64,000 nucleotides of DNA from Methylobacillus sp. (lineage in GTDB: Bacteria > Pseudomonadota > Gammaproteobacteria > Burkholderiales > Methylophilaceae): the NCBI RefSeq assembly GCF_036844465.1, contig NZ_DAIUFW010000009.1:4839-68838 (forward strand). The letters are read 5' to 3'. This document shows, piece after piece, positions 43,762-63,095 of the stretch; positions within the stretch are counted from its first letter, which is position 1; each line of letters starts with the position of its first letter. The notes beneath the pieces were generated by a model that was given only the letters and a program-made list of their open reading frames with translations, did not search any database and was not told the DNA's origin. A program made the translations under genes and the position numbers.

Positions 43762-43805
43762 GCATTACCTTCGTGCAGATCAACGCCTGAATAAGGAGAT
43801 GAAAC
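43762..43805 (+). promoter_or_regulatory. Conserved leader module upstream of primase gene
   Basis: GCATTACCTTCGTGCAGATCAAC. Pairing 43763-43771 / 43793-43801 gives 8 of 9 bp against the SD. Confidence 0.55.
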
Positions 43806-44816
43806 ATGTACGAAGAAGTCAGGAAGCAAGTTCCGCTGTCGTCGTTCTTGGCATCAATACTGGGGGAGCCGGTGGAGACAAGAACTGGGCCTCGCTGGTC
43901 CAGCTGCCCTCACTGCGGTCCAAGTGAGCACGATTCCAGAAAGACGACTCTTTCTGGGAAAGGAGAGTTTTTTCGGTGCTTCGCGTGTGGGTCACATGGA
44001 GATGTGATTGAGGCAGCGGCTTTGTACTACCGCTGCTCTCACAAGGAAGCAGCAGCTAAGCTTGCCGGAGACGCACGGGTTGTTGTCCCGTTTCGCCATA
44101 GTAGGAGAGCGGCCATTCCTTCGTCTCCGGACGCTGGCTTGGTTGCTGAGGCAATGCAGAAGCTACTGGATGCTCAGGCTGGATACTGGGACTACAACGT
44201 AGTCACCTACCTCACTCAGGAGCGAGGGCTGCCAATGCCACTGTTGAGGGAGGCTCACGATAAAGGGTATCTCCGGATGCTCTCGTCCGATGTGGGAATC
44301 GCAGCAAGCCAGGTGGCCCGCACTGTCGGGAATAAACTGTTGTTGGCAAGCGGGTTGCTTAGTCCGGAAAAGAAGCTCCCTGCTATCGTCTATCGACCGA
44401 TCATGTTCGGGTTTCCCGGTAATGATGCGGTTGAATTCCGTCGCCTCCCTGGTGAGTCATACGGGCCAAAGGCGCTGCGACATGGGAGCGTACTCATGCC
44501 GTGGCGATGGAACGAAGGCAGGGGTACGGTTGCGCTGGTGGAAGGTCTGATAGACCTGTTGTCACTTGTGGCAATGGGGTACGAGGACGAGGTGATTGCT
44601 GTTCCAGGTTGCCGGCAGTGGAACCATGCATGGAATCCGCTCCTTGCAGATCGGACTGTAATCATCAAGTTCGACCCTGATGGACCAGGTCAGACTGCAG
44701 CAGCAGACCTATCAAGTGAACTTCAGTCTGAGGGAATTCGTGCATGGGTCGATTGCCCCAAGGACGGAGATATCAATGACGTGCTGCTGGCTTCGTTGCG
44801 ACGGAGGGTGGCATGA
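43806..44816 (+). CDS. DNA primase-like protein (CHC2 zinc finger plus Toprim)
   Basis: CPHCG...FRCFACGSHGDVIEAA zinc finger. C-terminal Toprim acidic motifs (VEGLIDLLS, FDPDGPG). Confidence 0.7.
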   Translation: MYEEVRKQVPLSSFLASILGEPVETRTGPRWSSCPHCGPSEHDSRKTTLSGKGEFFRCFACGSHGDVIEAAALYYRCSHKEAAAKLAGDARVVVPFRHSRRAAIPSSPDAGLVAEAMQKLLDAQAGYWDYNVVTYLTQERGLPMPLLREAHDKGYLRMLSSDVGIAASQVARTVGNKLLLASGLLSPEKKLPAIVYRPIMFGFPGNDAVEFRRLPGESYGPKALRHGSVLMPWRWNEGRGTVALVEGLIDLLSLVAMGYEDEVIAVPGCRQWNHAWNPLLADRTVIIKFDPDGPGQTAAADLSSELQSEGIRAWVDCPKDGDINDVLLASLRRRVA

Positions 44817-45142
44817 AGGTGAAGTTCAGCAAGGGCTACAAGATGGCCTCGAGCTCGGTAGCCACTGCCGGATACGACGTCCTCAAGCAAAGGCTGGGTG
44901 TTGTGTTCTCAAGCGGCAGCGGCTACGTCTACGATGGTGTATCTCAAAACGTATGGGCCGCTTGGAAGAAGTCCTCCAGTAGGGGGAAGTACTTCAGCGA
45001 GAACATCCGCTCGAACTATGCTGGCACCGAGGCGGAGATCTCCTTTTCCACCTTGCGGAACCTGGATGAGTCATCAGTGATTCAGTACACGGCAGAGGAC
45101 TATATGCTGCCAGAAGATGCTGTGTCCGAAGCCTGGTTCTAG
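44813..45142 (+). CDS. KTSC-domain protein
   Basis: GYVYDGVSQNVWAAWKKSSSRGKYFSENIRSNY. Confidence 0.65.
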   Translation: MKVKFSKGYKMASSSVATAGYDVLKQRLGVVFSSGSGYVYDGVSQNVWAAWKKSSSRGKYFSENIRSNYAGTEAEISFSTLRNLDESSVIQYTAEDYMLPEDAVSEAWF

Positions 45143-45150
45143 CACCCACT

Positions 45151-45190
45151 CGCCCGCCCTCACAAACCACATTGTGAGCGGCGGGCTTTT
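45151..45190 (+). terminator. Intrinsic terminator
   Basis: cgcccgccctcaca / tgtgagcggcggg followed by ctttt. Confidence 0.65.
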
Positions 45191-45205
45191 CATTACTGGC
45201 CTTTG

Positions 45206-45240
45206 ACATCTCTCCTGTGCAGTCTCAACAGGAGCGAAAA
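45206..45240 (+). promoter_or_regulatory. Conserved leader module
   Basis: ACATCTCTCCTGTGCAGTCTCAAC. CUCCUGU (45212-45218) pairs with ACAGGAG (45228-45234). Confidence 0.6.
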
Positions 45241-45504
45241 ATGGAAAACAAGGGCGACACCTATTCGGAAGACTTCAGGCACGTCTGCGAGTGCAAGTCG
45301 TGGGCAAAGAAGGCGCTTCGTCTCAAGAACGAGGGGCAAGTGGATGTTCAGGCATGGTGGGTATCGACTTTCGAGCTCATCAAGAGGTACAGAGGGGGCG
45401 CGGCTGCCGTGCGCCTGGAGAAAGGCGTTCAGGAGTGGCTGCTGACTCGTAAGCAGCAGCTGATGGAGGAGATCGCGAAAGAGCAAAGCCTTGAGGGTGC
45501 CTAG
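45241..45504 (+). CDS. Hypothetical protein
   Basis: ATG 45241 has SD caggag. 87 aa. Confidence 0.5.
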   Translation: MENKGDTYSEDFRHVCECKSWAKKALRLKNEGQVDVQAWWVSTFELIKRYRGGAAAVRLEKGVQEWLLTRKQQLMEEIAKEQSLEGA

Positions 45505-45585
45505 CTCGGTTGTACATTCTGATAGGATTAAAGTAGGTTCATGCAGCGTTGCATGTGAAATTCAATTTTTACCAATCGACGGACT

Positions 45586-45627
45586 GCATCTCACTCGTGC
45601 AGTCCAACTACCTACTAGGAGAATATT
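45586..45627 (+). promoter_or_regulatory. Conserved leader module
   Basis: GCATCTCACTCGTGCAGTCCAAC. Alternative 8-bp hairpin 45581-45588 / 45598-45605. Confidence 0.6.
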
Positions 45628-46164
45628 ATGAGCATCATCACCATCACTTCGGCCCTTCAGGGCGCCATGTTCACCCTCAATGCTGAGGAGAAATCCAAGG
45701 CCCGCGAGATCCCTGTCGGTAAGGGCGTCAAAGCCGCTGTTGTTCTGGCTGGACATTTGTCGGCTCAGGACGTGAGGCAGCAGGACGGATCTTACGCGCC
45801 GGGTGCTTTTGGTCGGCTCCCAATCGAATGTGCCGTCCATGACGGCCGCTACATTATTTCGGTCGCAGGCGGGCTTCGTGGAACCCTTTTCAAGATGACT
45901 GAAGAGGAACGATCGAAAGCGAAGGAGCGTCTCGAGAAGGCGCGCAACAAGGCAGTGCCTGACTCCGACGTGCCGTATTACAACGGCGACCTTGAGGTCG
46001 GCGGCGGCCGCAAAGTCTGGCTTTCCGGCTTCGTTCGCGAAGTTGGCGCCGGCAAAGAGCGTCCCCAGGGCGAGAAGTTCATCAGTCTTCAGACTGGTGA
46101 AGAGAAGGCTGAACGCCAAGGTGGTGCAAAGCAGCAAGTTGCTGCTGATTCACTTCCGATGTAA
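45628..46164 (+). CDS. Hypothetical protein
   Basis: 178 aa with SD taggag. Confidence 0.55.
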   Translation: MSIITITSALQGAMFTLNAEEKSKAREIPVGKGVKAAVVLAGHLSAQDVRQQDGSYAPGAFGRLPIECAVHDGRYIISVAGGLRGTLFKMTEEERSKAKERLEKARNKAVPDSDVPYYNGDLEVGGGRKVWLSGFVREVGAGKERPQGEKFISLQTGEEKAERQGGAKQQVAADSLPM

Positions 46165-46170
46165 TAACCA

Positions 46171-46210
46171 AAACGCACATGCTCATTCTTTGAGTGTGTG
46201 CGTTTTTTTT
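46171..46210 (+). terminator. Intrinsic terminator
   Basis: aaacgcaca / tgtgcgttt followed by a T8 run. Confidence 0.7.
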
Positions 46211-46227
46211 CGTCTGGAGATTTTGAG

Positions 46228-46683
46228 ATGCAGCAGAAAATGAAAATTAAGGTCACAGCGGCTCTGGCTTTAGCCTTGGCTGCGCTTGCTATGGGGTGCG
46301 CTTCGATGACCAAAGACACACAAGGCCGCGACCTGGTCTATCTGCAAGAGGTGAAATTCGACGTAAGTAACCCTGATCTCGGACTGTTTGTTCCCTGGTT
46401 CAAGGTGCCGGTTGATGCGGTCGTCAAGGTTGGAGTCGGTGCGTTTGCTGGGACAAAAGTCGCGTCGGCGCTTGAGGCGAAGAAGGAAGTTCCTGAGGTG
46501 TTCATCACCTATTCGAAAAAGGAAGGTGAGATCAGCCTCGCCAATGTGGGACATAACTTCTCTCGGCCTGTCTGGGAGGGGATGCCCGAGCTCCAGACAA
46601 AACGGTGGTACATCCTTGCCAAAGACGATAAGGGAAAATACCTCATTCCGTGCGATGCCTCCTGCCAGCCTGCAGCGCGTTGA
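46228..46683 (+). CDS. Lipoprotein, unknown function
   Basis: Lipobox LAMGC after MQQKMKIKVTAALALALAA. Confidence 0.6.
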   Translation: MQQKMKIKVTAALALALAALAMGCASMTKDTQGRDLVYLQEVKFDVSNPDLGLFVPWFKVPVDAVVKVGVGAFAGTKVASALEAKKEVPEVFITYSKKEGEISLANVGHNFSRPVWEGMPELQTKRWYILAKDDKGKYLIPCDASCQPAAR

Positions 46684-46715
46684 CGCCTCCCGCACGTTTT
46701 CTTCCTTTAGTACCC

Positions 46716-46759
46716 GCATTTCCTCCCCGCATCACTGACCTTAATAGGAGGAAATCGTT
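46716..46759 (+). promoter_or_regulatory. Conserved leader module (variant with CGCAT)
   Basis: GCATTTCCTCCCCGCATCACTGAC. Perfect 9-bp pairing of AUUUCCUCC (46718-46726) with GGAGGAAAU (46747-46755). Confidence 0.55.
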
Positions 46760-47764
46760 ATGAAGATCGTTAAACTCGACCAGCGTAGCCAGGAGTGGCA
46801 CGACTGGAGGGCAGGAAAGGACATTGACGGCCCGCGAATCACTGCAAGCAACATCGCCGTGATCGCCGGCATCTCGCCCTTCAAGTCGAGGTATCAGTTG
46901 TGGGAAGAGATGACCGGCCGCAGGGAGCCAGACAAGATGAACCCTGCTATGGCGCATGGCGTAGAGACGGAAGATGAGGCTTTGGCTGCCTGGATTCAGG
47001 ATCATGGCGATTATGCCCAGCCGTGCTGCATCGAACATGATGGCATTCCGTGGGTTGCTGCCAGTCTCGATGGTTTGACCTTGACGGGCACAAAAGCCGT
47101 TGAGATCAAGTGCCCATACTCCCGCTACGGGGATGCGCCGAAGCTATGGGTTTCCGCGCAAGCCGGTGAAATCCCTGCTTACTATCTCGCCCAGATGCAG
47201 TGGCAGATGTTTGCATCGAATGGCGAGATCCTCTCGATGGACTTCTGGGTCTATTGGGCGGGGAAGGGGATCAAGATCCCCGTGCAGTCTGATCCGCTGG
47301 AGCAGCAGCGTTTGTACGCTGAAGCAAAGACTTTCAGGGAGGCTGTCATCAACGATGACATCCCTGCGACCGATGCTTGGATCGATGCAGCAAGTGCATG
47401 GCGTCAAGCGAAGCTTGAGTACGACATGGCAAAAGAAACCCTCGATGCGCGTGCAAAAGACATCGAGAACCTTCTTGCAGCTAATGGAGAGTCGTCGTAC
47501 GAAGGTTGCGGCATCGTCGCCACCAAGTACTCAAGCAAGGGAGCGGTGGATTACGGCGCGCTTTTCGAGAGCGTGAAGGAGCACCACGGCATCGATCTCG
47601 TTATGCTTGCTGAGCAGTTCCGCAAGGATGACTCTGAGCGATTCAAGATCACTTTGCAGAAGAAGGCTCCTGCGGCAAAAGCTTCTACGAAGCGAACGAC
47701 AGAGGCTGAGATTGAAATCGCTGATGCAATGCTTCAGAGTGCAGCAGAGGAAGCTTGGTTCTAG
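46760..47764 (+). CDS. YqaJ-like (lambda Exo-type PD-(D/E)xK) exonuclease
   Basis: RSQEWHDWRAGKDIDGPRITASNIAVIAG...YQLWEEMTG...ASLDGL...VEIKCP. Confidence 0.8.
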   Translation: MKIVKLDQRSQEWHDWRAGKDIDGPRITASNIAVIAGISPFKSRYQLWEEMTGRREPDKMNPAMAHGVETEDEALAAWIQDHGDYAQPCCIEHDGIPWVAASLDGLTLTGTKAVEIKCPYSRYGDAPKLWVSAQAGEIPAYYLAQMQWQMFASNGEILSMDFWVYWAGKGIKIPVQSDPLEQQRLYAEAKTFREAVINDDIPATDAWIDAASAWRQAKLEYDMAKETLDARAKDIENLLAANGESSYEGCGIVATKYSSKGAVDYGALFESVKEHHGIDLVMLAEQFRKDDSERFKITLQKKAPAAKASTKRTTEAEIEIADAMLQSAAEEAWF

Positions 47765-47770
47765 AAACCT

Positions 47771-47811
47771 AACCCCGTCACAAGCCTGTATTGCTTGTGA
47801 CGGGGTTTTTT
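47771..47811 (+). terminator. Intrinsic terminator
   Basis: aaccccgtcacaagc / gcttgtgacggggtt followed by a T-run. Confidence 0.8.
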
Positions 47812-47859
47812 GTTGCTCTGCGGGTATCTCGTTGCACCGCGATAAAAACTATATGCGGT

Positions 47860-48387
47860 TCATTCGCCGGAAGAGCTCTGTTCTGCGTCGGCGTCTTTCT
47901 TCTTCGTCCGAGATCTCTTTGTCTTGGGCTCTTCAATAACCCACTCTTTTCGCTGTATCTTTCTAAGTATCTCAGTTTCGTACATTCTTTCGTAGATCAT
48001 GCAGATAAAGAATTTTGTTCTGTCCGAAAGGATGTCCCACTCGTCCTTGCTTGGAGCAAACTGACTTACGGTTGGGTCTTCACTTATCTTTTGAATAGTA
48101 AGACGCATCCGATCCCCAAGATCCTGCTCAATCAGGAAGTCGTTGGGTTCCAAAATCTCGGCCAGGATATAAACATCGACCGTACTTACTCCAAGCCATT
48201 CCGCAAGAAGGCGCTTGGCTTCATCAGACATGCTCTGAATCGGCCTTGTTCCTGAAAGCATTGCTTGGAAATAAGGCGGAGAAAGATTGATTGCAGCTGC
48301 GGCGTCTTGTGTTGTTACGCCCAACTCCCATTTACGTTTATGAATGGCGTCAATCAGCGGCTTCCCCTTGGGGATATCCTTGGTCAT
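47860..48387 (-). CDS. XRE-family HTH regulator with C-terminal domain
   Basis: WELGVTTQDAAAAINLSPPYFQAMLSGTRP. Start trimmed to ATG 48387. Divergent from the 48776 gene. Confidence 0.6.
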   Translation of the reverse strand: MTKDIPKGKPLIDAIHKRKWELGVTTQDAAAAINLSPPYFQAMLSGTRPIQSMSDEAKRLLAEWLGVSTVDVYILAEILEPNDFLIEQDLGDRMRLTIQKISEDPTVSQFAPSKDEWDILSDRTKFFICMIYERMYETEILRKIQRKEWVIEEPKTKRSRTKKKDADAEQSSSGE

Positions 48388-48775
48388 GTTATTTCCGATG
48401 TTAAGTCTTTGGGTCGAATTCTCTCTTGGTGGATTGGGATGCATGTAGTACCGATGCAAAAAAACAGGCTCCCGTCCGGAAACGGCCTGTACGGTCTTGC
48501 ATTGGTTCCTTGTTTTCCATCACACCTTGCGTTCTGCATGGTCATTGTATGCGCAAAAAAGGCGCTCTGTGCTTCCTTCCTTCGTCTGAAAGGAAGGATT
48601 TTTCTTCAGCTTGTAGCGTTTGGTTACGACGTCGGCGCCGATCCGATTATCACAGATACGCACAGTTTGCAACTGGTTCCTGCGAGTATGCCCTGGATTG
48701 CTTGCAATCTGGTGGCGTCGAGTTATCATCTATCCTAGATGTAACACTTCCGATGCCACGAAATAGGGAATCATC

Positions 48776-49735
48776 ATGCTTTCACAAGAGCGCAGACGTA
48801 TCGCAGCCCTGTACCAGTACCCTGACGGCTTCTTGAATGTGGGGTGGTTCGCTGGGTATCTGCGACGCAAGGCAGGAGATGGTCGTCACTTCCAGATCCA
48901 GCAGACCAACCTGGATAACCATAACCTCGACCTTGTTCTGCGAAAGAACGACGAGATCCCGCCTCAGTTTCACGATCTGAAGCCGCTTCGAGCGATCTGC
49001 AACCTGACCGGTAAGATCATCGGCGAAGACCCTGTGACGAAGGAGCCGATTCGGACTGTTGTTGCGACCGCAGTCGGCTTCGATGTGGCAACCGTTCTCG
49101 ACATGCCGATCGATTCGGCGTTTGACAAGATTCCAGTGGCAGGTGCCCCGACGACGAACTTCGAGGACCACGGCGTCAAGCTCTTTAGCGGCAGGGACGA
49201 CAAGCTTTCTGACTCGAGCAATATGGTCCGTCTGGCCGGCATCATCGCTGCGACACGCTTCCGGGCCCCGAACCCTGAAAAGGGAATTCGAGCGCGATGC
49301 GAGATTCTGCTCAGACAAAAAGAGGATGAGTCTCAACTGATCCCGGTTCGCTACTACGGGCGTTTGGCATCGGCTGTGTATGAGCGCGTGATGCGCGGCG
49401 CCGCATGTGAGATCGTTGGCCGGCTACTGGCCGACGTGAAAAGGACGGGAGAGCCGATTGATCCTGAAACGGGCATTGAGCCCGTACGGAAAATCCATTT
49501 CATTGAATGTACAACCGCGCCTGGGGTAACGACCAAGAATGAAATCAAGGTCACTCCGGAGTGGATGGTCAAGATGCGCCAAGAGCTTCAGGACTCCCAG
49601 CGCCAACGCGCGGAAGCGCGAGCTCGCCGGATTGAGCAACAGAAGGCAGCCTTGTTGGCCGGGGGCGGTTCGAAGCAGTCTCCGGTGGCCGAAGTGAGTG
49701 ACGCAGAGGCGCAAGCGCTTTTCGATACGCTTTGA
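48776..49735 (+). CDS. Putative ssDNA-binding protein with SSB-like OB-fold pattern(s)
   Basis: VRLAGIIAATRFR...IPVRYYGRLASAVYERVMRGAACEIVGRLL resembles an SSB OB fold. Coiled-coil and acidic C-terminal tail. Confidence 0.4.
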   Translation: MLSQERRRIAALYQYPDGFLNVGWFAGYLRRKAGDGRHFQIQQTNLDNHNLDLVLRKNDEIPPQFHDLKPLRAICNLTGKIIGEDPVTKEPIRTVVATAVGFDVATVLDMPIDSAFDKIPVAGAPTTNFEDHGVKLFSGRDDKLSDSSNMVRLAGIIAATRFRAPNPEKGIRARCEILLRQKEDESQLIPVRYYGRLASAVYERVMRGAACEIVGRLLADVKRTGEPIDPETGIEPVRKIHFIECTTAPGVTTKNEIKVTPEWMVKMRQELQDSQRQRAEARARRIEQQKAALLAGGGSKQSPVAEVSDAEAQALFDTL

Positions 49736-49754
49736 GAAAGGTTGGTTTTGAGAC

Positions 49755-51940: not shown

Positions 51941-52425
51941 TCTATTTTGCCGGTCCCGACTTATTCTTTGCGGGCTATCGAAGGAAGAAAGAGTTTTTAA
52001 GGGAGGTGTGTGAGGCGAAAAATATATACCCTCTTTTTCCCGGCGATGATGAGATCAGCGATCCGAATGTTATTTTCAGGGAAAATGTAGCGAAAATACG
52101 CGAAGCCCATGTGGTGATTGCAAACCTGAAGCCCTTCAGAAGCTCAATCGAACCGGATTCCGGAACTGCTTTTGAGTGCGGACTTGCCTGGAGTTCTGGT
52201 ATCCCTGTGATTGGGATATGTCAGGATCGGCGACCAATGATGTTGAGAATTGACCCGTCTACCCATCTTTGCAATGACGAGGGGTTGTTGACCTGCTCGG
52301 ATGGCGCAGTGATCGAAAACTTTGGCTTTCCCGTGAACCTGATGCTGGCTACGTGTGCGACCGCCATCGTTACGACTGTAGTAGACGCGATTAACTTGGC
52401 TGCTCGTCTCGAGTTGCCTTCATAG
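51928..52425 (+). CDS. Nucleoside 2-deoxyribosyltransferase-like protein
   Basis: VYFAGPDLFF ... EPDSGTAFECGLAW. The start overlaps the relaxase 3' end by 13 nt. Confidence 0.7.
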   Translation: MRKLVYFAGPDLFFAGYRRKKEFLREVCEAKNIYPLFPGDDEISDPNVIFRENVAKIREAHVVIANLKPFRSSIEPDSGTAFECGLAWSSGIPVIGICQDRRPMMLRIDPSTHLCNDEGLLTCSDGAVIENFGFPVNLMLATCATAIVTTVVDAINLAARLELPS

Positions 52426-52435
52426 AACGCTCGCC

Positions 52436-52474
52436 GCATCTCGCTCCTGCAGCCGTAACCAACAGGAGTCTGAA
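52436..52474 (+). promoter_or_regulatory. Conserved leader module
   Basis: GCATCTCGCTCCTGCAGCCGTAAC. CUCCUG (52444-52449) pairs with CAGGAG (52463-52468). Confidence 0.6.
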
Positions 52475-54379: not shown

Positions 54380-54389
54380 TCCAACCACG

Positions 54390-54422
54390 AGGGCTCAAGC
54401 GAAATCGCTTGGGCCCTTTTTT
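54390..54422 (+). terminator. Intrinsic terminator
   Basis: gggctcaagcg / cgcttgggccc followed by a T6 run. Confidence 0.75.
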
Positions 54423-54435
54423 ATCACCGTGCTAC

Positions 54436-54474
54436 GCACATCTCTGAGGGCAGACCTAACCCAAGGAGATTGAC
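54436..54474 (+). promoter_or_regulatory. Conserved leader module (variant GGCAG)
   Basis: GCACATCTCTGAGGGCAGACCTAAC. Confidence 0.5.
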
Positions 54475-54948: not shown

Positions 54949-54979
54949 CGCGCACGTTCAGTTTTCACTTCACCTTCTT

Positions 54980-55018
54980 GCCATCTCTCCTTGCAGCCCT
55001 AAACACAAGGAGATTCAA
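54980..55018 (+). promoter_or_regulatory. Conserved leader module
   Basis: GCCATCTCTCCTTGCAGCCCTAAAC. UCUCCUU (54986-54992) pairs with AAGGAGA (55007-55013). Confidence 0.6.
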
Positions 55019-56060: not shown

Positions 56061-56086
56061 GTGCCCGTTTTCCCTGCCCGTGCTTC

Positions 56087-56128
56087 GCATTCCCTCCCTG
56101 CACATCAACCACAAGGAGGTAATCGGTC
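56087..56128 (+). promoter_or_regulatory. Conserved leader module (variant TGCAC)
   Basis: GCATTCCCTCCCTGCACATCAAC. CCUCC pairs with GGAGG. Confidence 0.55.
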
Positions 56129-56521
56129 ATGTCATCAGTCGTTACTTTTGGAAAATTCAAGGGGCAGTCTTACGCGGAGCTCCCTTATTGGTACCTGCGT
56201 TGGATGGTGCTTGAGAAGCACACCAAGGCAGATCTTGCCGAGCAGGAGATGCAAAGGCGCATGGCGTTGCAAAGCGACGTGCTCATCGAGCCGAAGGTGC
56301 TCGCGAGGCTTGAGCGCTATCACAAGGCCTCGTGGCAGCGGACTCGGAAGCCTAGAGAGTCGTTCTTGCCTTGGCTCAACCGGTTGGCCAGCGCTGCACT
56401 ACGAACGAGCCCGATCCATGGTGGGCGGTATGCGCTGCCTGGGTTCGTTTTTGTTTTTGATGAGGATGGAGCTGTACCCAAGCTCGTCGACGTCGTTCAG
56501 CAGCGTCAGTACGTGCCCTGA
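56129..56521 (+). CDS. DUF3820-like protein
   Basis: N-terminal FGKFKGQSYAELPYWYLRWM motif. Confidence 0.5.
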   Translation: MSSVVTFGKFKGQSYAELPYWYLRWMVLEKHTKADLAEQEMQRRMALQSDVLIEPKVLARLERYHKASWQRTRKPRESFLPWLNRLASAALRTSPIHGGRYALPGFVFVFDEDGAVPKLVDVVQQRQYVP

Positions 56522-56539
56522 TTTCTCATGGTTCAAACG

Positions 56540-56575
56540 GCATAGCTCAGTGCAGTTCTAACCAAGGAGAAAGAA
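56540..56575 (+). promoter_or_regulatory. Conserved leader module
   Basis: GCATAGCTCAGTGCAGTTCTAAC. The anti-SD pairing is weak here. Confidence 0.45.
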
Positions 56576-57097: not shown

Positions 57098-58093
57098 ATG
57101 GTTCGGCTATTGAGTTTGCGGGCTGATCTGCCTGCCGTGGTTGCGGTGAATGTTGTGTCCACCATGCGGGAAGAAAATGATGCGGAGGAGTGGGATTTCT
57201 ATGCCTGGAGCGCCCTTCATATTGCTTTCAACATGTGGTGCAGGGAGGTCATTCATCAAGGGGTTCTCAGTTCAGAAAGTGCTGCTAAACGAGGCGTTGT
57301 AGATCTGTTCCGAGAAGCTTCGTGCACCGCAACTTTTCGCGATGCTTTTAAGCTGAAGGGAGCAGAACTTCTGGGCATGGATGTTCTTGATCTGTCCACT
57401 GAAATGACTTCGGCCCTACCTGCGCCGAGGATGGGAATGAGGCCATTTTCTGTTACAAGGCTTGATAAGCTGCCACCTCCCAATCTGCGGTTCACGTCAT
57501 GTCGCCCTCCAGCCATGAAAGTGCAGCTGACTGTGTCTGATCTTGCAGATGAGTATGGAGAGGGGATGCCGATCGCGTGGGAAACGACGTATGAGGATCT
57601 GATCGAAGGTCGTGTGCGTGTGAAATCCGGTTATGGTCAATATACGCAGGGCATCGTTGAGTTTGCTGATGACGATGGGGCCTTTGCTACTCAGGTTCCT
57701 GATGGGATGAGCGTGATGTACGCCCCCGTCGTGGACGAGCTTGATCATGTGACCCTTCTCGAGACTTGCATCTTTGAAACCCGAGAGTCCGTTGAAGCCC
57801 GGATTCGCTCGGCCGTAGAGGCCTACGCAAGGGTGGCAGTGCTTGCAAGGATCACTTACGACCGCGAATGCCTTGGAATCCCAGCGGATCTGGAGCCCGC
57901 TTCCGTTACGGTAACGCAAGAGGGCAATGGGGCCAAATCTGTTGTTCAAGTTGCATTTTCGGGTAAAGGCGAGCAGATGGTCCGTAAGGCGAACTGGTGG
58001 TGCAACGCCATCTTTGGCGATCGGGCGAACCAGTTGGCGTTGGAAGCAGCGAATCGGTTGGCACAAAGTCTGAAGGTGCCGTTCTTGATCTAA
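57098..58093 (+). CDS. Hypothetical protein
   Basis: 331 aa with SD gaagaggag. Confidence 0.55.
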   Translation: MVRLLSLRADLPAVVAVNVVSTMREENDAEEWDFYAWSALHIAFNMWCREVIHQGVLSSESAAKRGVVDLFREASCTATFRDAFKLKGAELLGMDVLDLSTEMTSALPAPRMGMRPFSVTRLDKLPPPNLRFTSCRPPAMKVQLTVSDLADEYGEGMPIAWETTYEDLIEGRVRVKSGYGQYTQGIVEFADDDGAFATQVPDGMSVMYAPVVDELDHVTLLETCIFETRESVEARIRSAVEAYARVAVLARITYDRECLGIPADLEPASVTVTQEGNGAKSVVQVAFSGKGEQMVRKANWWCNAIFGDRANQLALEAANRLAQSLKVPFLI

Positions 58094-58096
58094 ATG

Positions 58097-58132
58097 AAAG
58101 GCCGGCTGACGTCATTGTCACCGGCCTTTTTT
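58097..58132 (+). terminator. Intrinsic terminator
   Basis: aaaggccgg(c)tgac / gtcaccggccttt followed by a T-run. Confidence 0.75.
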
Positions 58133-58147
58133 CTATGGTGCCTCCCT

Positions 58148-58189
58148 GCATGTCATTCCATGCAGTTCAACAACAAACAGGAGAGCATC
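58148..58189 (+). promoter_or_regulatory. Conserved leader module
   Basis: GCATGTCATTCCATGCAGTTCAAC. Alternative 7-bp hairpin 58146-58152 / 58159-58165. Confidence 0.55.
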
Positions 58190-58699
58190 ATGAAGATCGA
58201 TAGCGAAGAGTTCGCCCTTGCGCTGGAGTGTAAGAGCGAGGGCGACCGCGGCGTCGCAGCGCTGCTGTTGCAGGCAGCCAGAAGAAGGGCGCAGAACCGC
58301 AGTCTGGTGGAGCGCCTCATGCGGGATAGGGGCGGTGCGGAGGGGATGGAACTCTCCAATGTTCCTGAAGGTGCCACCCAGAAAGAGCCTGCCTATGTGG
58401 CGATCCTTCCCGAGCCGGACGGGAGCGGTAAGAGTCGGCTCGTGAGCTTTCGCCAGAACGGCTTTCATGGGCATCAGGTGTTCGCAACCCCGGAGGCCGC
58501 GCTCGAAGAGGCGGTCCGGGACGGCTACCGCTGGCCCGTCCAGGTGCTTGATCAATTGGCCCTTCAGCCACTCTTCCAGAAGGGGCAGCGGTTCGTTGAG
58601 CTGGTCTACGCCTACAACATCGGAAAGCTCGATGCTGCGGCGTTTCATGCGGCAGTTGATGCGCTCGATCGTGAGTATGACTTGAAGGAGGCAGCGTGA
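58190..58699 (+). CDS. Hypothetical protein
   Basis: ATG 58190 has SD caggagag. 169 aa. Confidence 0.55.
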   Translation: MKIDSEEFALALECKSEGDRGVAALLLQAARRRAQNRSLVERLMRDRGGAEGMELSNVPEGATQKEPAYVAILPEPDGSGKSRLVSFRQNGFHGHQVFATPEAALEEAVRDGYRWPVQVLDQLALQPLFQKGQRFVELVYAYNIGKLDAAAFHAAVDALDREYDLKEAA

Positions 58700-58893
58700 T
58701 GGAACGGTTGCCAGTAAAGGTGGGCTGCGGTGTGCTTGAAAAGCCCATGACGCGTAGCCAGGCAGAGCGGTGGGGGCGTCAGAACATGCCGTCGGACCTG
58801 CGAAAGGCAGGCTTCGTGGTTGATGTCTATCGAACGGACCCCGTGATCAACGGCGGCGATTGGTTTCGCGTGAACTACGTGAAGCGCTACTAA
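58696..58893 (+). CDS. Hypothetical small protein
   Basis: 65 aa with a GTG start overlapping the upstream stop. Confidence 0.4.
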   Translation: MMERLPVKVGCGVLEKPMTRSQAERWGRQNMPSDLRKAGFVVDVYRTDPVINGGDWFRVNYVKRY

Positions 58894-58903
58894 GGAGAAA
58901 GCG

Positions 58904-59020
58904 ATGATCGATGACGAGGAGCCAGGGTTCGATCTCTTCGATCACGGCCTGCATGCGTTTGAGGCCTTCGACAGCCTGCTCGAGGACTTGCTTTCATGGT
59001 TCTGTTGGTGGCGACACTGA
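58904..59020 (+). CDS. 38-aa small ORF (not in ORF track)
   Basis: Strong SD taaggagaaagcgATG. Translation MIDDEEPGFDLFDHGLHAFEAFDSLLEDLLSWFCWWRH. Followed by a terminator. Confidence 0.4.
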   Translation: MIDDEEPGFDLFDHGLHAFEAFDSLLEDLLSWFCWWRH

Positions 59021-59038
59021 CCTGATCCGAGTTTCCTG

Positions 59039-59067
59039 CGCCCCTCCACCGTTGGAGGGGCGTTTTT
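59039..59067 (+). terminator. Intrinsic terminator
   Basis: cgcccctcca / tggaggggcg followed by a T5 run. Confidence 0.8.
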
Positions 59068-59108
59068 ACGTATAGCACCACATGGATCGGATTCCGATTG
59101 ATGTCACT

Positions 59109-59148
59109 GCATCTCTAGCCTGCAGATCCAACTCGCAGGAGAAGGGCA
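59109..59148 (+). promoter_or_regulatory. Conserved leader module
   Basis: GCATCTCTAGCCTGCAGATCCAAC. Hairpin CUGCA (59107-59111) / UGCAG (59121-59125). Confidence 0.55.
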
Positions 59149-59164
59149 ATGACAGGAGAAGAAA

Positions 59165-59500
59165 ATGGCAAGTTTTTCGCACATCAGATCCACCGGAGTA
59201 TGCTTGAACCCGAAGGAGGGTTTGATCATGCCAACTGTTTTCACTGTGACGTTCTCCGACAACGAGACGACGCCGGAGCACATCGAGTCGAGGGCGGCCG
59301 AACTGGGAATCACGCCCGAGATGCTAATCCGACGCGCCATTGCGGAGCATCTTGGGGACTACGGCCTGAAGGAAGTGCCAGAGGGAGCCAAGATCAACTC
59401 CATCACGGAACTCCTAATTCACTCGGGAGTGTTCAAACCTGGAGCAGGGGAGGATGAGCTATGTCTCAACTTGAATCCCCCTGCCCGGGGGAAGTCGTAG
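59165..59500 (+). CDS. Ribbon-helix-helix (CopG-like) antitoxin candidate
   Basis: TVFTVTFSDNETTPEHIESRAAELGITPEMLIRRAIAEHL. An alternative start at ATG 59228 has SD aaggaggg. Confidence 0.55.
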   Translation: MASFSHIRSTGVCLNPKEGLIMPTVFTVTFSDNETTPEHIESRAAELGITPEMLIRRAIAEHLGDYGLKEVPEGAKINSITELLIHSGVFKPGAGEDELCLNLNPPARGKS

Positions 59501-59838
59501 GGGCTTGGATGCCCGAGACTGAGGAGGTTTGCAGTCCCGGCAGCAAGTTCCGGCCTGTGCTCGTGATGGCAGTCGATGAGCACGACGGTCAAATCGATGT
59601 GCTCTGTGCCTACGGGACGAGTCAGAACGTCGATCGTGTCGGCAGAGGGGAGTTTGTGGTGACGCCTGCTGATCTTCGGCTCGAAAAAACGACGAAGTTC
59701 TGCCTCCGGAAGATGTATTGGTTGCCACTCGAGGCGAGCTACTTCGCCCGGGGTGGCGCTCAGGAAGTGGCAGGGCGTTTGTCTTCCAAGCTTCTCAGCA
59801 AACTCGCGTTTGCCGCCAAGGAGGTGGGGCTGAAGTAG
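59461..59838 (+). CDS. PemK/MazF-like toxin candidate
   Basis: PGEVVGAWMPE....GSKFRPVLVMAVDE...CAYGTSQ. Overlaps the RHH gene by 40 nt. Confidence 0.5.
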   Translation: MSQLESPCPGEVVGAWMPETEEVCSPGSKFRPVLVMAVDEHDGQIDVLCAYGTSQNVDRVGRGEFVVTPADLRLEKTTKFCLRKMYWLPLEASYFARGGAQEVAGRLSSKLLSKLAFAAKEVGLK

Positions 59839-59869
59839 TCTTTCTGGACCACAACCTCCCTCGATACTC

Positions 59870-59908
59870 AAAGCCCGCATCCTCACAGGACGCGGGCTTT
59901 AGTTTTTT
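59870..59908 (+). terminator. Intrinsic terminator
   Basis: aaagcccgc / gcgggcttt followed by agtttttt. Confidence 0.7.
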
Positions 59909-59922
59909 ACGAGCCCGTCAGC

Positions 59923-59970
59923 GGTATCCCCTTCAGTGCAGCACAAACCCATTCACTGAGGAGTTACACC
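59923..59970 (+). promoter_or_regulatory. Conserved leader module
   Basis: GTATCCCCTTCAGTGCAGCACAAAC. 8-bp pairing 59931-59938 / 59954-59961. Confidence 0.55.
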
Positions 59971-60522
59971 ATGAAGGCACTGAAGTTTGTCACCGATGTC
60001 CGTTCCGATGCCGATTATGCGGACATCCCTGAGCAGGCCATTTTCGAGATCGACGAGAAGGCTGCGGCCAGGATCGCCGCCTTGTCGCGCATGGTCAGCG
60101 CTTCCGAAGCGCACAAGATCGAGGTCTTTGACGCGCGCACGGTCTGGCTCAAGGAGGAGGCGAAATCCGATGAGGAGGCCGACGACCCCGAGAACCAGGA
60201 ACGTGTGGAGCTCGATTCACTGGTCGTGAGCAATGAGGAGTTCTGGTTCGCTGGATACCTCAAGCACACCAACGTGCGGATTTTCACGGCACGTCAGCGG
60301 ATCGACTCGCTGCTGAACTACTTTGGCGTCAAGGCAAGCGAGACCGCCGAGGTCCGCGCCCGCCAGTTCATCGAGTCCATGGCACGGCTGAGCCTGTGGG
60401 ACTGGTCGAACGAAGCCGGTGAGCCGGTCAACGAGTGCTCTTCGCCTTCGGACGGCTACGAGGATTCGCATGCTGCGCTTATGACGCTGATCGAAGAGGC
60501 TCGCGCCTTGTCCGTGAGTTGA
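59971..60522 (+). CDS. Hypothetical acidic protein
   Basis: 183 aa with SD gaggag. Confidence 0.55.
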   Translation: MKALKFVTDVRSDADYADIPEQAIFEIDEKAAARIAALSRMVSASEAHKIEVFDARTVWLKEEAKSDEEADDPENQERVELDSLVVSNEEFWFAGYLKHTNVRIFTARQRIDSLLNYFGVKASETAEVRARQFIESMARLSLWDWSNEAGEPVNECSSPSDGYEDSHAALMTLIEEARALSVS

Positions 60523-60575
60523 TCTCAGACCCCCAACCGTCGATGCGAGGGCGGTTTTTTTCGCATGTGCCCCGT

Positions 60576-60623
60576 GTCATTCCTCTGGTGCAGTTCTTTC
60601 TCATACGAAAAAAGGAGTTGATC
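60576..60623 (+). promoter_or_regulatory. Conserved leader module (lacks YAAC)
   Basis: GTCATTCCTCTGGTGCAGTTCTTTC. Confidence 0.45.
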
Positions 60624-61244
60624 ATGTTTTTTGTGATGGAAAACGGTGGCCTGTACAGCGAGTTTGTTGCGCTTGAGGCCGCGGTGGACATGGCCGAGAT
60701 GGTCTTTGGCTATGTCGATCCTCAAGGGGAAGCGACTGTATCGGTCGAAAATGCGGAGGGTAAGTGCGTTGCTGTGTTCACGAACCGCAAGATCATCGGC
60801 AGCTTCACAAAACAGGCATGGGGCGGTCGAAAGGGCGACGACGCAATCTATGTCGGTACGGAGGAGTTTGATGCAACCGACCATGTTCTGTTGCTCGATC
60901 ACGCCGAGCTAGTCGCCCTGGTCGACGGAGAGGAGCGTACGGACGAGGTCGGCCTGGCGCACTTCGACTGGCGTGGCCCCAGCGAAACTGCTGTGTGCGA
61001 GTCGATCTGCGATTACTTCGGCGTGCAGGAGCTCGAACAGATCTCACCCGAAGCGCTCTCGTTTGCACGTGCCCGCAGGAGCCCGAAGCCGGCCGTTGAG
61101 CAGACGCTGACGTTGAGCATCAAGGTCGATGTCTCGATGATCGGCGATGCGACCCTTGAGGATTTCGTCGAAAACCTCGACTACAGCGTGATCTCGAACA
61201 CCCCTGGGGTTCGGGTTCGCATGACTGAGCTGGTCGACGCCTAG
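60624..61244 (+). CDS. Hypothetical protein
   Basis: ATG 60624 has SD aaggag. 206 aa. Confidence 0.55.
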   Translation: MFFVMENGGLYSEFVALEAAVDMAEMVFGYVDPQGEATVSVENAEGKCVAVFTNRKIIGSFTKQAWGGRKGDDAIYVGTEEFDATDHVLLLDHAELVALVDGEERTDEVGLAHFDWRGPSETAVCESICDYFGVQELEQISPEALSFARARRSPKPAVEQTLTLSIKVDVSMIGDATLEDFVENLDYSVISNTPGVRVRMTELVDA

Positions 61245-61262
61245 ACGTTCACCGCCCATCCC

Positions 61263-61305
61263 AAAGCCCGCTTTGCCTCTGTTTTCAGGGGCTGGCGGGC
61301 TTTTT
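61263..61305 (+). terminator. Intrinsic terminator
   Basis: aaagcccgc ... gcgggcttt followed by ttt. Confidence 0.7.
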
Positions 61306-61319
61306 ACATTCAGCTTGAT

Positions 61320-61359
61320 GCATCTCCCGGTTGCAGCACTAACCAACCAGGAGAAGGAA
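61320..61359 (+). promoter_or_regulatory. Conserved leader module
   Basis: GCATCTCCCGGTTGCAGCACTAAC. Pairing 61321-61330 / 61347-61356 gives 8 of 10 bp. Confidence 0.6.
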
Positions 61360-63033
61360 ATGCAAACCGTTCAGATCTCGGAAATTGTCGTTGGCAACAA
61401 CCCGCGGAAGTTCTTTGACCCTGCGGAGATGGAGGAGCTGACCGCTTCGATCCGCGAGAAGGGGGTCATCCAGCCGATTCTCGTTCGTCCCTTGCTGGAC
61501 GGCGGGTACCAGGTTGTCGCTGGTGGTCGCCGCTACGCGGCAGCTAAGGCGGCACATGGGGATGACTACCCCATGCCCGTTGTCATCAAGGATCTGGACG
61601 ACGATGAAGCCGAAGAACTGGCGCTCATCGAAAACGTTCAGCGGGCGGACATGTCGCCAGCAGAGGAAGCTGAGGCGGCCGCGAAAATCCTGGCTCGCTC
61701 AGAAGGTGATCGGGACGATGCAGCGCGGCGCCTTGGCTGGAGTCGGGCCACCCTCGACAAACGCCTGGGCCTGATGAACGCCACGGACGCAGTTCGCTCT
61801 GCGCTCGCTGAGCGTCGCATCAAGTTGGGCCACGCCGAGTTGTTGGCGGGTCTTCCGCGACCAAAGCAAGACGCTGTTCTTGGGGCACTTCTCAAGGCTC
61901 CCGAGCTTGTCGGTGTCGGTGAGTTCAAGCAGCAAATCCAGAAGCTCGCCAACGCGTTGTCGACGGCGGTATTCGACAAGACGGAGTGTGCGCAATGCCC
62001 CCACAGCAGCGGGAATCAGCAAGCGCTCTTTGGGGAGGCCGTCGAAGATGGCCATTGCACCAACCGTGAGTGCTGGGACGGAAAGACCGAAGCGGCGCTC
62101 GACGAGATTCGCAAAGGGCTTATCGAGGACTTTCCTGAAGTCAGGATTGTTCGCCCCGGTGAGAACTTCACCGTCATCAAGCTCGTCGCCGAAGGTGGTT
62201 CTGGCGTCGGTGATGTTCAGGCTCAGGCCTGCCGTTCCTGCGGCAAGTTTGGGGCGGCCATCAGCGCGGTGCCCGGCAAGGTGGGCAAGGTCTTCAAGGA
62301 CTTGTGCTTCGACTCTGCATGTAACGCCGAGAAGGTGAAGGCGAATCATCAGGCGATCGTTGCAGCCGCTCAACCGGCTCAACCCGCTGCGCCTACCCCG
62401 GGAGCAACAACGACTGGCTCAGCGAGCAACACATCGCCCGCTGCGAAACCTGTAACTCAGAAGAAGGCTGCTGAGGTGCAGGACTCCACGCGGGTCAAGG
62501 AGTATCGGGCGAAGGTCTGGCGATCTGCATTGGCCAAGCACCTCTACATGAATCCCGAAGTTGGGGAGCGTGTTCTGCTTGCCCTTTGCATGAGTGGGGA
62601 TGCGCGTCACATCAGCGCAACTCAGCTTGGCAAAGCGTTCGCCAAGCTCACTCAAGGGACGTCGTCCAGTCTGTCTTTGACAGTGGCGCTGACCCAGGTC
62701 GGTGAAGCAAGCGACGAGGTTGTCTCCAAGCTGAAGGTCATGTTGCCGGCCGCAACCGCAGAGGGGCTCGAGGAGCACAAGGTGGTCGCGCTGCTCAACG
62801 AGCTGAAGGTGAACCTCGCGGATCACTGGACGCTTAACGCCGACTACCTGGGGTTGCTCACCAAGAGTGAGATCAAGGTCGTGGCCGAGCAAATCGGGCT
62901 TGCCGCACATATGGGCAAGGATCTGGACAAGGCTCTCGGGGAGAAGAAGGACGAGTGCGTCAAGAAGCTGTTGGCCGTATCGGGCTTTGACTATGCCGGG
63001 AAGCTTCCGGCGAACGTGATGTGGAAGGCGTAA
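61360..63033 (+). CDS. ParB-family protein (PRTRC-associated type)
   Basis: ParB N-domain IQPILVRP...YQVVAGGRRYAAAKAA. A Cys cluster sits mid-protein. Followed by PRTRC E- and C-like genes. Confidence 0.8.
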   Translation: MQTVQISEIVVGNNPRKFFDPAEMEELTASIREKGVIQPILVRPLLDGGYQVVAGGRRYAAAKAAHGDDYPMPVVIKDLDDDEAEELALIENVQRADMSPAEEAEAAAKILARSEGDRDDAARRLGWSRATLDKRLGLMNATDAVRSALAERRIKLGHAELLAGLPRPKQDAVLGALLKAPELVGVGEFKQQIQKLANALSTAVFDKTECAQCPHSSGNQQALFGEAVEDGHCTNRECWDGKTEAALDEIRKGLIEDFPEVRIVRPGENFTVIKLVAEGGSGVGDVQAQACRSCGKFGAAISAVPGKVGKVFKDLCFDSACNAEKVKANHQAIVAAAQPAQPAAPTPGATTTGSASNTSPAAKPVTQKKAAEVQDSTRVKEYRAKVWRSALAKHLYMNPEVGERVLLALCMSGDARHISATQLGKAFAKLTQGTSSSLSLTVALTQVGEASDEVVSKLKVMLPAATAEGLEEHKVVALLNELKVNLADHWTLNADYLGLLTKSEIKVVAEQIGLAAHMGKDLDKALGEKKDECVKKLLAVSGFDYAGKLPANVMWKA

Positions 63034-63095
63034 CGCCTTTTTCAATGCAGGAAGGCCTGGTTGCAGGCCAGGCCCTTAAATCAAGGAGAAATGGG

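Follow-up and report, generated by a model that had tools for sequence, protein, structure and literature searches.

The window analyzed here, a stretch of 64,000 nucleotides from a Methylobacillus sp. contig (NZ_DAIUFW010000009.1, positions 4,839 to 68,838), carries an F-type mating apparatus from its position 1 to ~30 kb, on a plasmid that also encodes ParA/ParB, a topoisomerase, and an integrase. From 43.8 kb onward a co-directional block follows, with genes for a primase-like toprim protein, a KTSC protein, a YqaJ exonuclease, an HD protein, a nucleoside deoxyribosyltransferase, VWA/CobT-like and AAA/CbbQ-like proteins, numerous proteins of unknown function, and finally the ParB protein of the PRTRC system. 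A small regulatory operon, comprising a LuxR-type gene, a 90-amino-acid (aa) gene, and a 323-aa gene, diverges from the first gene of the block. Throughout the block, a short sequence element recurs just upstream of the start codons. Most likely, the element forms the core of a 45-base promoter found before ~45 plasmid genes, and its copies are probably the promoters of a plasmid-encoded alternative sigma-like factor.

An initial annotation of this DNA had listed the element upstream of at least 14 plus-strand genes and interpreted it as part of a hairpin at the ribosome-binding site (RBS). All 14 principal copies were recovered at the positions reported, 30 to 48 nt upstream of plus-strand start codons preceded by a Shine-Dalgarno (SD) sequence. 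The copies are given below as the segment from the upstream T-rich box (T-box) through the conserved TGCAG.

43742..43778, plus strand: copy 1, before the toprim/primase-like gene (ATG 43806); GAGTTC-N14-GCATTACC-N4-TGCAG
45186..45222, plus strand: copy 2, before a DUF7696 gene (ATG 45241); CTTTTC-N14-ACATCTCT-N4-TGCAG
45566..45602, plus strand: copy 3, before a 178-aa gene (ATG 45628)
46696..46732, plus strand: copy 4, before the YqaJ exonuclease gene (ATG 46760); GTTTTC-N14-GCATTTCC-N4-CGCAT
52416..52452, plus strand: copy 5, before the VWA/CobT-like gene (ATG 52475)
54418..54453, plus strand: copy 6, before a 139-aa gene (GTG 54475)
54389..54418, plus strand: intrinsic terminator with a 13-bp stem; its T-tract also serves copy 6 as T-box (terminator-promoter fusion)
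54961..54996, plus strand: copy 7, before the AAA/MoxR-CbbQ-like ATPase gene (ATG 55019); 8-bp complement TCTCCTTG/CAAGGAGA
56067..56103, plus strand: copy 8, before a 130-aa DUF3820 gene (ATG 56129); a terminator at 56024-56054 ends 13 nt upstream
56520..56555, plus strand: copy 9, before a 78-aa gene (ATG 56576); GCATAGCT, with neither pyrimidine tract nor anti-SD pairing
58128..58165, plus strand: copy 10, before a 168-aa gene (ATG 58190); the T-box is a terminator T-tract, and there is no anti-SD pairing
59089..59125, plus strand: copy 11 (ATG 59149/59165); its T-box is the weakest of all (GGATTC)
59904..59941, plus strand: copy 12, before a 183-aa gene (ATG 59971); GTATCCCC variant
60557..60593, plus strand: copy 13, before a 206-aa gene (ATG 60624); the terminator at 60535-60556 supplies its T-tract as the T-box
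61300..61336, plus strand: copy 14, before the PRTRC-system ParB-family gene (ATG 61360)

A fifteenth, degenerate copy had been placed near 63050. There the CAT box is absent, the spacing is wrong, and a position weight matrix (PWM) misses the site, so that 14 of the 15 listed copies hold. What lies at this position, between the PRTRC ParB and PRTRC-E genes (63060-63085, plus strand), is a short hairpin, GGCCTGG..CCAGGCC, that contains TGCAG. The reported confinement of the element to the array was borne out, with zero copies in window positions 1-43,000, which hold the tra, par, and regulator genes.

The extent of the element had to be revised. The ~25-nt core described initially stands, but it is preceded, at a distance of exactly 14 nt from GCAT, by a T-rich box, tTTTT(C/A), that had been missed. 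Across 37 to 54 aligned copies from several lineages, the full consensus reads tTTTT(C/A)-N14-GCATnTCY-N4-TGCAG-N2-3-CYAAC(C)...AAGGAG...ATG. Information peaks at the TT of the T-box, at CAT, at the T three bases on, and at the GCA of GCAG; the CTCC/pyrimidine tract is a weaker and less conserved part of the consensus, and the N14 and N4 spacers carry near-zero information. The distance to TGCAG is 4 nt in 41 of 54 copies, 3 nt in 8, and 5 nt in 5. An unbiased count of dyads upstream of all 95 SD-preceded open reading frame (ORF) starts in the window returned GCAT-N8-TGCA (p = 7e-13) and TTTT-N15-GCAT at the top, and the strict pattern TTH-N15-CATNT-N7-GCA gave 6 matches where 0.34 were expected (0 of 100 shuffles). 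With a leave-one-out PWM built on 13 training sites, which is only moderately specific, the copies ranked within the top 0 to 40 of 128,000 positions, except that at 59110 (rank 192). Literature searches turned up no description of the motif or of a factor reading it.

The same element is found on related plasmids. In Aromatoleum aromaticum EbN1 plasmid 1 (NC_006823.1), a PWM trained on the T-box-to-octamer segment detected, at the corresponding locus, 14 orthologs of the window copies and 7 further copies downstream, most of which have TGCAG at the expected distance although the matrix excluded TGCAG. A scan of all 207 kb of this plasmid yielded ~45 copies oriented toward an SD and ATG 30 to 50 nt downstream. 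The block of copies runs on for ~50 kb there, and after PRTRC ParB it takes in the remaining PRTRC system, a PAPS-reductase-like gene, DUF3150, and helicases. Isolated copies precede a DUF4942 gene, a DUF1071 gene, and several small genes of unknown function; none precedes the tra genes. In the more diverged lineage L011/L012, whose proteins are ~66 to 73% identical to those of the window, nine orthologous pairs (window versus L012) retain 83% identity in the T-box and 85% in the -10 box octamer, compared with 48% in the N14 spacer and 34% further upstream. Across four lineages, the element of copy 1 is the sole conserved block of the intergenic region between the luxR-type and toprim genes. 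Three copies, at L001 43782, L012 17503, and L012 18898 (all plus strand; L001 is the EbN1 locus), have a good T-box, GCAT box, and GCAG with no SD or ORF within ~60 nt; these could drive long leaders or noncoding RNAs.

The layout of the element is that of a promoter. Placing the A of CAT at -11 puts the T-box at -32..-27, the G of TGCAG at +1, and a pyrimidine or G at -1, and this short-spacer bipartite arrangement resembles promoters of the extracytoplasmic function (ECF) type. For 20 of 49 copies, the T-box lies exactly where a GC-rich terminator hairpin ends and is itself the T-tract of the terminator; in several further copies the terminator lies 8 to 20 nt farther upstream. Since such a terminator would halt incoming transcription largely 14 nt before GCAT, the next gene needs a start of its own. 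At least six copies (that of the first gene of the array, copy 1, which faces the luxR-type gene, and at least five isolated ones) lie in divergent intergenic regions without any co-directional gene upstream. In these stand-alone copies the T-box is not the tail of a terminator, yet TT(C/A) is kept at the same distance. The element is strictly orientation-dependent relative to its gene.

The GCAT and TGCA(G) boxes might alternatively form an operator, GCAT..(N8)..TGCA(G), on a host-sigma promoter. That would make the 323-aa protein a transcription factor rather than a sigma factor, and its tandem helix-turn-helix (HTH) part, the ArsR protein that follows the 323-aa gene in the regulatory operon of EbN1, or the LuxR-type protein would be candidate binders. 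Such a design is not without precedent, because repressor-controlled repeated promoters before establishment genes are known for plasmid p576 (PMC6294495). The two conserved GCA-containing boxes ~13 bp apart, together with the two HTH_3 domains of the candidate protein, also fit an operator, as do the palindromic, operator-like repeats that adjoin remote homologs of this protein and overlap sigma70-type -10 boxes. However, no sigma70-type -35/-10 pair accompanies the element: a scan found 5 sites in 20 kb against 6.2 expected, none of them before an array gene, and none in the divergent regions, including that of copy 1. The GCA-N11-TGC dyad also stops at GCA/TGC, with no conservation of the base in front of GCAT, and strict orientation dependence is not what an operator would predict. 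The fixed spacing of the T-box favors a sigma factor, as does the structural similarity of the 323-aa protein's N-terminal domain to sigma region 2 (see below). We therefore consider an operator improbable.

Several known promoter classes were compared with the element. The consensus sequences used were GGAAC-N16-17-CGT for ECF sigma factors, CTTGAAA-N13-14-CCCCATnT for sigma32 (RpoH), and TAAA-N15-GCCGATAA for sigma28. With sigma32 promoters the element shares an identical -10 core, CATnT, and a spacer that is short in this notation; it has TTTTC instead of TTGAAA, a TT-to-CAT distance of 16 nt rather than ~20 to 21, and no run of C before CAT, and is not a member of that class. A sigma54 promoter (GG at -24 and GC at -12, 10 nt apart; TGGCAC-N5-TTGCA) was rejected, as GCAT-N8-TGCA is 2 nt too long and no conserved G precedes GCAT. 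A single-strand promoter of the Frpo/ssi type needs an imperfect hairpin of >100 nt; the inverted repeat here spans 5 to 11 bp over -8..+1 and the SD, with the T-box and CAT outside it.

The initial annotation had rested its hairpin on a complementarity between the pyrimidine tract of each copy and the SD region of the same gene. A statistical excess of such gene-specific complementarity was confirmed, whereas only about one-third of the copies are individually significant and some (56541, 58149, and 60578) have no pairing at all. In the window, the duplex energy of the -13..-1 segment with the SD averages -8.9 kcal/mol for the gene's own SD and -7.1 kcal/mol for those of other genes (p = 7e-4); the corresponding test gave p = 0.026 in L012 and p = 2e-5 for the 30 copies combined. 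Control comparisons were also biased toward the own gene (arm versus coding sequence, p = 6e-4; N14 spacer versus SD, p = 0.017), so that part of the signal reflects local composition. When the SD flanks were shuffled with GGAG held fixed, the summed energy was -274.6 against -213.6 ± 10.8 (z ~ -5.6) and the summed longest match was 157 against 130 ± 4.8. In the 27 copies anchored on CTCC/GGAG, 69.8% of cells were paired, compared with 62.8 ± 1.4 in shuffles and 43 to 50% in slid registers.

Individual copies illustrate the range. Copy 2, whose T-box is abutted by a terminator hairpin, has the 7-bp complement CTCCTGT/ACAGGAG. Copy 4 (46717) has the 9-bp complement ATTTCCTCC/GGAGGAAAT, and its L012 ortholog reads TACCTCCG/CGGAGGTA, a compensatory change from T-A to A-T. 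Long complements also occur elsewhere: CCTTTTGTG/CACAAAAGG at L023 30463 and 10 to 11 bp at L020 39425. Covariation scored 0.203 against 0.100 (27 copies; 0 of 500 shuffles), and at the pair flanking the CTCC/GGAG core 17 copies have U-A, 7 have C-G, and one is mismatched; the stems themselves turn over, being gained or lost between orthologs (window versus L012). Excess complementarity is independently present in both diverged lineages. A search of genomes and metagenomes for more sigma-like loci yielded close relatives and one 73% lineage only, so the covariation rests on few independent lineages. Shared ancestry of the copies as promoter-plus-SD modules, if it applies, would have inflated the covariation counts. 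Three alternative upstream hairpins, CTGCA..TGCAG, which the initial annotation proposed would instead expose the anti-SD, exist in the window but are not kept in L012.

An RBS-sequestering leader hairpin would have the pyrimidine tract pair with the gene's own SD and present GUGCAG..YAAC as a loop to be bound by a shared trans factor, whether protein or RNA. The gene-specific excess, the compensatory change at yqaJ, and the U-A/C-G covariation speak for it, and the strongly conserved GCAG and CYAAC would indeed fall in the loop. Predicted SD accessibility also drops when the upstream arm is included: in partition-function folding, the SD core is unpaired with a probability of 0.49 in RNA from the element's own start, 0.20 in read-through RNA, and 0.33 after shuffling of the upstream part (Wilcoxon, 4.6e-5). 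Yet the hairpin accounts neither for the strongest conservation (TT of the T-box and CAT, bases that it leaves unpaired in most copies) nor for the fixed 14-nt spacing. In ~40% of copies a terminator ends 14 nt before GCAT, several copies have no co-directional gene upstream, and no promoter is visible upstream of the left arm. Watson-Crick pairs are enriched (105 versus 78) but G·U pairs are not (13 versus 16.8 expected), and the ratio of G·U to A·C equals expectation, so the complementarity bears no RNA-strand signature. The absence of pairing in several copies, its turnover between orthologs, and the possible descent of the copies from shared promoter-plus-SD modules weaken the hairpin further. 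Rfam 15 gave no match at E <= 1 in window positions 41000-64000, and a trans-acting RNA complementary to the loop was rejected, minus-strand matches in the window being at chance level. Although we regard the RBS complementarity as genuine, a hairpin riboregulator is very unlikely to be the main explanation of the element; a promoter, which the initial annotation had itself listed as a competing possibility ("unusual promoter"), is the better-supported reading.

With the start at the G of TGCAG, the left arm of the fold-back occupies -8..+1 and would be absent from RNA initiated at the element and present only in RNA reading through from upstream. A tentative explanation for the complementarity, and one that we consider less likely than not, is that the fold-back has a real insulating function against such read-through. 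The promoter may instead be correct and the complementarity a by-product without function, which differs from the preceding explanation on the fold-back only. Its sources could be the resemblance of CATCTCC(TT) to the 16S anti-SD, the joint copying of promoter-plus-SD modules, and the "correction" of quasi-palindromes by template switching. CATCTCCTTG in the consensus matches the reverse complement of CAAGGAGATG, the consensus SD; the own-gene bias of the control regions, the missing wobble signature, the turnover of pairing between orthologs, and the long complements at stand-alone copies, where read-through is least expected, are all consistent with a by-product. Set against this are the flank-shuffle result (z ~ -5.6; 0 of 500 shuffles), idiosyncratic matches such as that at L023 30463, the compensatory change at yqaJ, and the independent excess in both diverged lineages. 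A functionless by-product is a serious possibility that we stop short of calling probable; relative to an insulating function we judge the two about equal, or the by-product slightly higher.

A candidate reader of these promoters is encoded in the small regulatory operon that diverges from the array.

42845..43675, minus strand: regulator of the LuxR family that has an autoinducer-binding domain; it diverges from the array and is its probable upstream switch
42376..42648, minus strand: conserved 90-aa gene immediately preceding the sigma-like gene of this operon; no family match
41398..42369, minus strand: 323-aa sigma-like protein, the candidate cognate factor (Pfam, NCBI annotation of the ortholog, structure model, synteny)

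The 323-aa gene lies ~1.4 kb from the first copy of the element. In the encoded protein, residues 1-97 are predicted to form a domain resembling ECF sigma region 2, residues 98-191 are disordered, and the C terminus comprises two HTH_3 domains of the XRE type. For the ortholog in EbN1 (WP_011254847), the NCBI annotation reads "sigma-70 family RNA polymerase sigma factor." Pfam matched HTH_3 and, below its cut-off, Sigma70_r2 (E = 0.005), and a profile of 44 relatives searched against the Protein Data Bank gave weak matches to ECF sigma factors (E of 0.06 to 0.4, residues ~40-155). An AlphaFold2 model built on a 5-sequence alignment has a predicted local distance difference test (pLDDT) score of 67 overall and 75 to 87 in the N- and C-terminal domains. 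Foldseek placed Escherichia coli sigmaE first for this model (1or7 as the top match), and the N-terminal domain superposed on isolated sigmaE region 2 with template modeling scores of 0.67 (4lup_C) and 0.70 (5or5) and a probability of ~1.0, but with a Foldseek E > 0.05. The C-terminal half matched XRE-type repressors. In the model, the protein resembles a sigma-2 domain joined by a tether to two XRE HTHs, which stand in for region 4.

The phylogenetic distribution of the gene is in keeping with such a role. The family is rare: 5.8e9 proteins contained 4 close clusters, and 87 remote representatives were counted among 1.8 billion. A gene of ~90 to 105 aa always precedes the sigma-like gene, and the arrangement of luxR-type, 90-aa, and sigma-like genes occurs together with the array and the motif in every lineage that holds the gene (the window, EbN1, L007, L009, L010, L011/L012, L002, and L003, of which L007 is a metagenome-assembled genome of the Halothiobacillaceae). 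A more remote association was seen in Burkholderia vietnamiensis G4 plasmid pBVIE01, which encodes a 26%-identical homolog. There GTGTGnnGCATCTC, with the same octamer as in the window and a different upstream box, stands 45 to 70 nt upstream of four genes (4 sites versus 0.08 expected), all near the sigma-like homolog:

pBVIE01 12895, plus strand: GTGTGnnGCATCTC site
pBVIE01 18009, plus strand: GTGTGnnGCATCTC site
pBVIE01 23524, plus strand: GTGTGnnGCATCTC site
pBVIE01 23499, minus strand: GTGTGnnGCATCTC site

No similarity was found between the 94-aa genes beside this homolog and the 90-aa partner. A Pseudomonas plasmid with a similar homolog gave no convincing motif. On balance we lean toward the 323-aa protein as the reader of the promoter family. 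Autoregulation of the sigma-like operon through the motif was rejected, as no copy precedes the operon. Just past the stop codon of the luxR-type gene and upstream of the 90-aa/sigma-like operon, AGCTACTGTTCTAGCAGTACTT (42823-42844, minus strand) contains a TACTG-N6-CAGTA inverted repeat, which from its sequence is a possible site for the LuxR-type regulator, with a spacing unlike that of classical lux boxes.

Several observations weigh against a dedicated sigma factor or against its identification with the 323-aa protein. The likeness to sigma-2 is weak in sequence (E of 0.005 to 0.4) and the structure model is of medium quality (pLDDT 67). Region 4 (Sigma70_r4) was not recognized in the protein, the C-terminal half of which is accounted for by the two HTH_3/XRE domains. 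On plasmid pMOL30, which has a similar homolog, no such repeated motif was found, and on two metagenomic contigs (L026 and L027) with 24 to 32%-identical homologs the genes are preceded by a different palindromic box, TATGATAC. The link between protein family and promoter is therefore not general, and the assignment of the promoter to this protein is inferred. As to the element, its boxes and spacing do not fit canonical ECF or sigma28 promoters, the distance from T-box to CAT is 1 to 2 nt below that of canonical ECF promoters, and no known sigma consensus was matched. GCAG at +1..+4 equals the -10 box in conservation, an uncommon feature among bacterial promoters; CYAAC at ~+8..+12 is conserved as well. 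Start-site preference usually calls for less. Possible causes are the binding of another factor at GCAG, a second head of the protein (which has two HTHs) reading the DNA, a repressor site, or a function in the 5' leader. The transcription start sites are placed by geometry alone. A host sigma factor may read the element instead. Finally, stand-alone copies without an upstream gene also hold long complements (such as the 10 to 11 bp at L020 39425), and the excess complementarity is left unexplained if read-through is irrelevant.

Two side observations concern the remote homologs. The L026/L027 contigs have similar backbone genes (ParM-like, VWA, HD, DUF3150, and F-type tra), and their box, TATGATAC/GTATCATA, overlaps sigma70-type -10 hexamers. 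A further box, ACGTGTTATGTATC, recurs on pMOL30 (L006 9803, 19409, and 30138, the last on the minus strand), pBVIE01 (L024 1618), and the Pseudomonas megaplasmid (L025 10263); it is probably the operator of a shared backbone regulator and unrelated to the promoters.

Taken together, these features suggest a model in which each element would be a compact promoter of one dedicated type, consisting of a T-rich box at about -32..-27, a -10-like GCATnTCY with the A of CAT at about -11, and a conserved start T(-1)G(+1)CAG, followed by a CA-rich unstructured leader (CYAAC..) and a strong SD. It would be read by RNA polymerase together with a plasmid-encoded alternative sigma-like factor, for which the 323-aa protein is the most likely candidate. 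The sigma-like gene belongs to an operon in which it follows a LuxR-type regulator, so a signal on the plasmid would turn on the ~45 dispersed transcription units simultaneously. The regulon would include primase, YqaJ exonuclease, AAA+/VWA proteins, the PRTRC system, helicases, and many proteins of unknown function, and would exclude the tra genes. Many units would end in an intrinsic terminator whose T-tract is re-used as the upstream box of the next promoter. The pyrimidine tract would serve as the -10/discriminator segment (-8..+1). As this tract resembles an anti-SD and is extended to the flanks of its own SD in about one-third of copies, RNA arriving from upstream would fold onto the SD, whereas RNA from the element's own +1 would lack the left arm and hence be translatable. 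In its fullest form, the model would make the plasmid a set of ~45 self-insulated modules (terminator, promoter, fold-back trap, SD, gene) under a sigma-2 plus tandem-XRE factor and LuxR-type control, a picture that, taken as a whole, we regard as doubtful.

The array is more diverged than the remainder of the window. Window positions 43,700-63,200 are 92.9% identical to EbN1 plasmid 1 and the remaining window is 97% identical; gene replacements relative to EbN1 are seen within the array, for example, at 59923-60520. This difference between the array and the tra/par part, along with the gene replacements, suggests from sequence comparison that the cargo of the array turns over faster. A phage origin was rejected, since a phage collection gave no megablast match to the window. 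Copies of the element are missing between 47771 and 52425, where the YqaJ terminator (47771-47807) is followed by a minus-strand 175-aa gene and then by an element-free operon encoding a 319-aa protein, an HD-domain protein, and a nucleoside 2-deoxyribosyltransferase, with a sigma70-like site, TTGCAA-16-TATCAT, at 48702-48729. This region may be an inserted module with host-type expression. Within the array, a strong terminator-like hairpin at 46170-46206 (plus strand; 16-bp stem and T8) lies ~14 nt before the start, at ~46228, of a 151-aa gene that has no promoter copy in front. Given this arrangement, expression of the gene would have to come from read-through, unless the hairpin acts in RNA processing or stability and is no terminator.

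Among mobile elements, phages are well known to encode sigma factors that have private sets of promoters; for plasmids, such factors are documented in very few cases, SigN of pBS32 being the example. To our knowledge none is documented for proteobacterial conjugative plasmids, and literature searches found no such sigma regulon there. SigN (ZpdN) of the Bacillus subtilis plasmid pBS32 is a divergent sigma factor encoded by the plasmid; it is LexA controlled and autoactivating and has a plasmid-restricted regulon (PMC6751061). It is, by analogy, the closest functional counterpart of the system proposed here: in both cases a divergent sigma-family protein is encoded on a plasmid, one type of -35/-10 stands before many plasmid genes, and the regulon, here a proposed one, includes genes of nucleotide metabolism as well as of DNA replication and is essentially confined to the plasmid. 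The two differ in that SigN is a complete sigma factor, whereas the candidate here, known from sequence alone, has only a sigma-2-like domain and two XRE HTHs. Moreover, no motif precedes the factor's own operon here, the neighbor is a LuxR-type gene, the host is proteobacterial, the consensus is unrelated, and there are ~45 promoters, often fused to terminators and overlapping an anti-SD. ECF sigma factors of group 4 such as E. coli sigmaE (1or7, 4lup, 6jbq) are alike in their two short boxes, short fixed spacer, and regulon-type distribution, and, as proposed here, in a -10 box read by a sigma-2 domain, the region of sigmaE on which the candidate's predicted N-terminal domain superposes. In contrast, TTTTC-N14-GCATnTC matches no known ECF group (GGAAC..CGT type) and has a spacer 1 to 2 nt shorter, a sigma-4 domain and an adjacent anti-sigma of recognizable family are absent, and +1..+4 is strongly conserved.

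The overlap of terminator, promoter, and anti-SD recalls the transposase genes of IS10, IS50, and IS200, which are shielded from outside transcription by a terminator and an SD-sequestering stem; fold-back inhibition in IS10 was reportedly described by Davis, Simons, and Kleckner in 1985. For IS200, protection of the transposase gene by an upstream terminator and an SD-sequestering stem has been documented (PMC4513863). As in those elements, a terminator lies just upstream, and an inverted repeat near the gene's own promoter pairs with the SD and would silence only read-through or foreign RNA. Here, however, ~45 ordinary plasmid genes are involved, the left arm is the -10/discriminator of a specialized promoter, a convincing stem occurs in only about one-third to one-half of the copies, and insulation is predicted from folding. 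Plasmid p576 offers another parallel through Reg576, in which host-sigma promoters carry a dual TTATCCC operator for a ribbon-helix-helix repressor (PMC6294495). There too, several promoters of the same design precede plasmid genes of the DNA-metabolism and anti-defense type, the expression of which is coordinated and probably transient. In the present array no promoter of host type can be seen, and the promoter would be the repeated sequence itself.

If confirmed, these findings would mean that a large F-type conjugative plasmid operates a regulon independent of its host, made up of ~45 accessory, DNA-metabolism, and PRTRC genes, that a sigma-like protein can carry XRE HTHs in place of region 4, and that terminator, promoter, and anti-SD trap can overlap in one compact design. 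The ~60-bp module, which looks orthogonal and is repeated with natural variants, would make an attractive part for synthetic biology. For the plasmids themselves, the promoter family would provide a direct handle on the timing of expression of the enigmatic PRTRC system.

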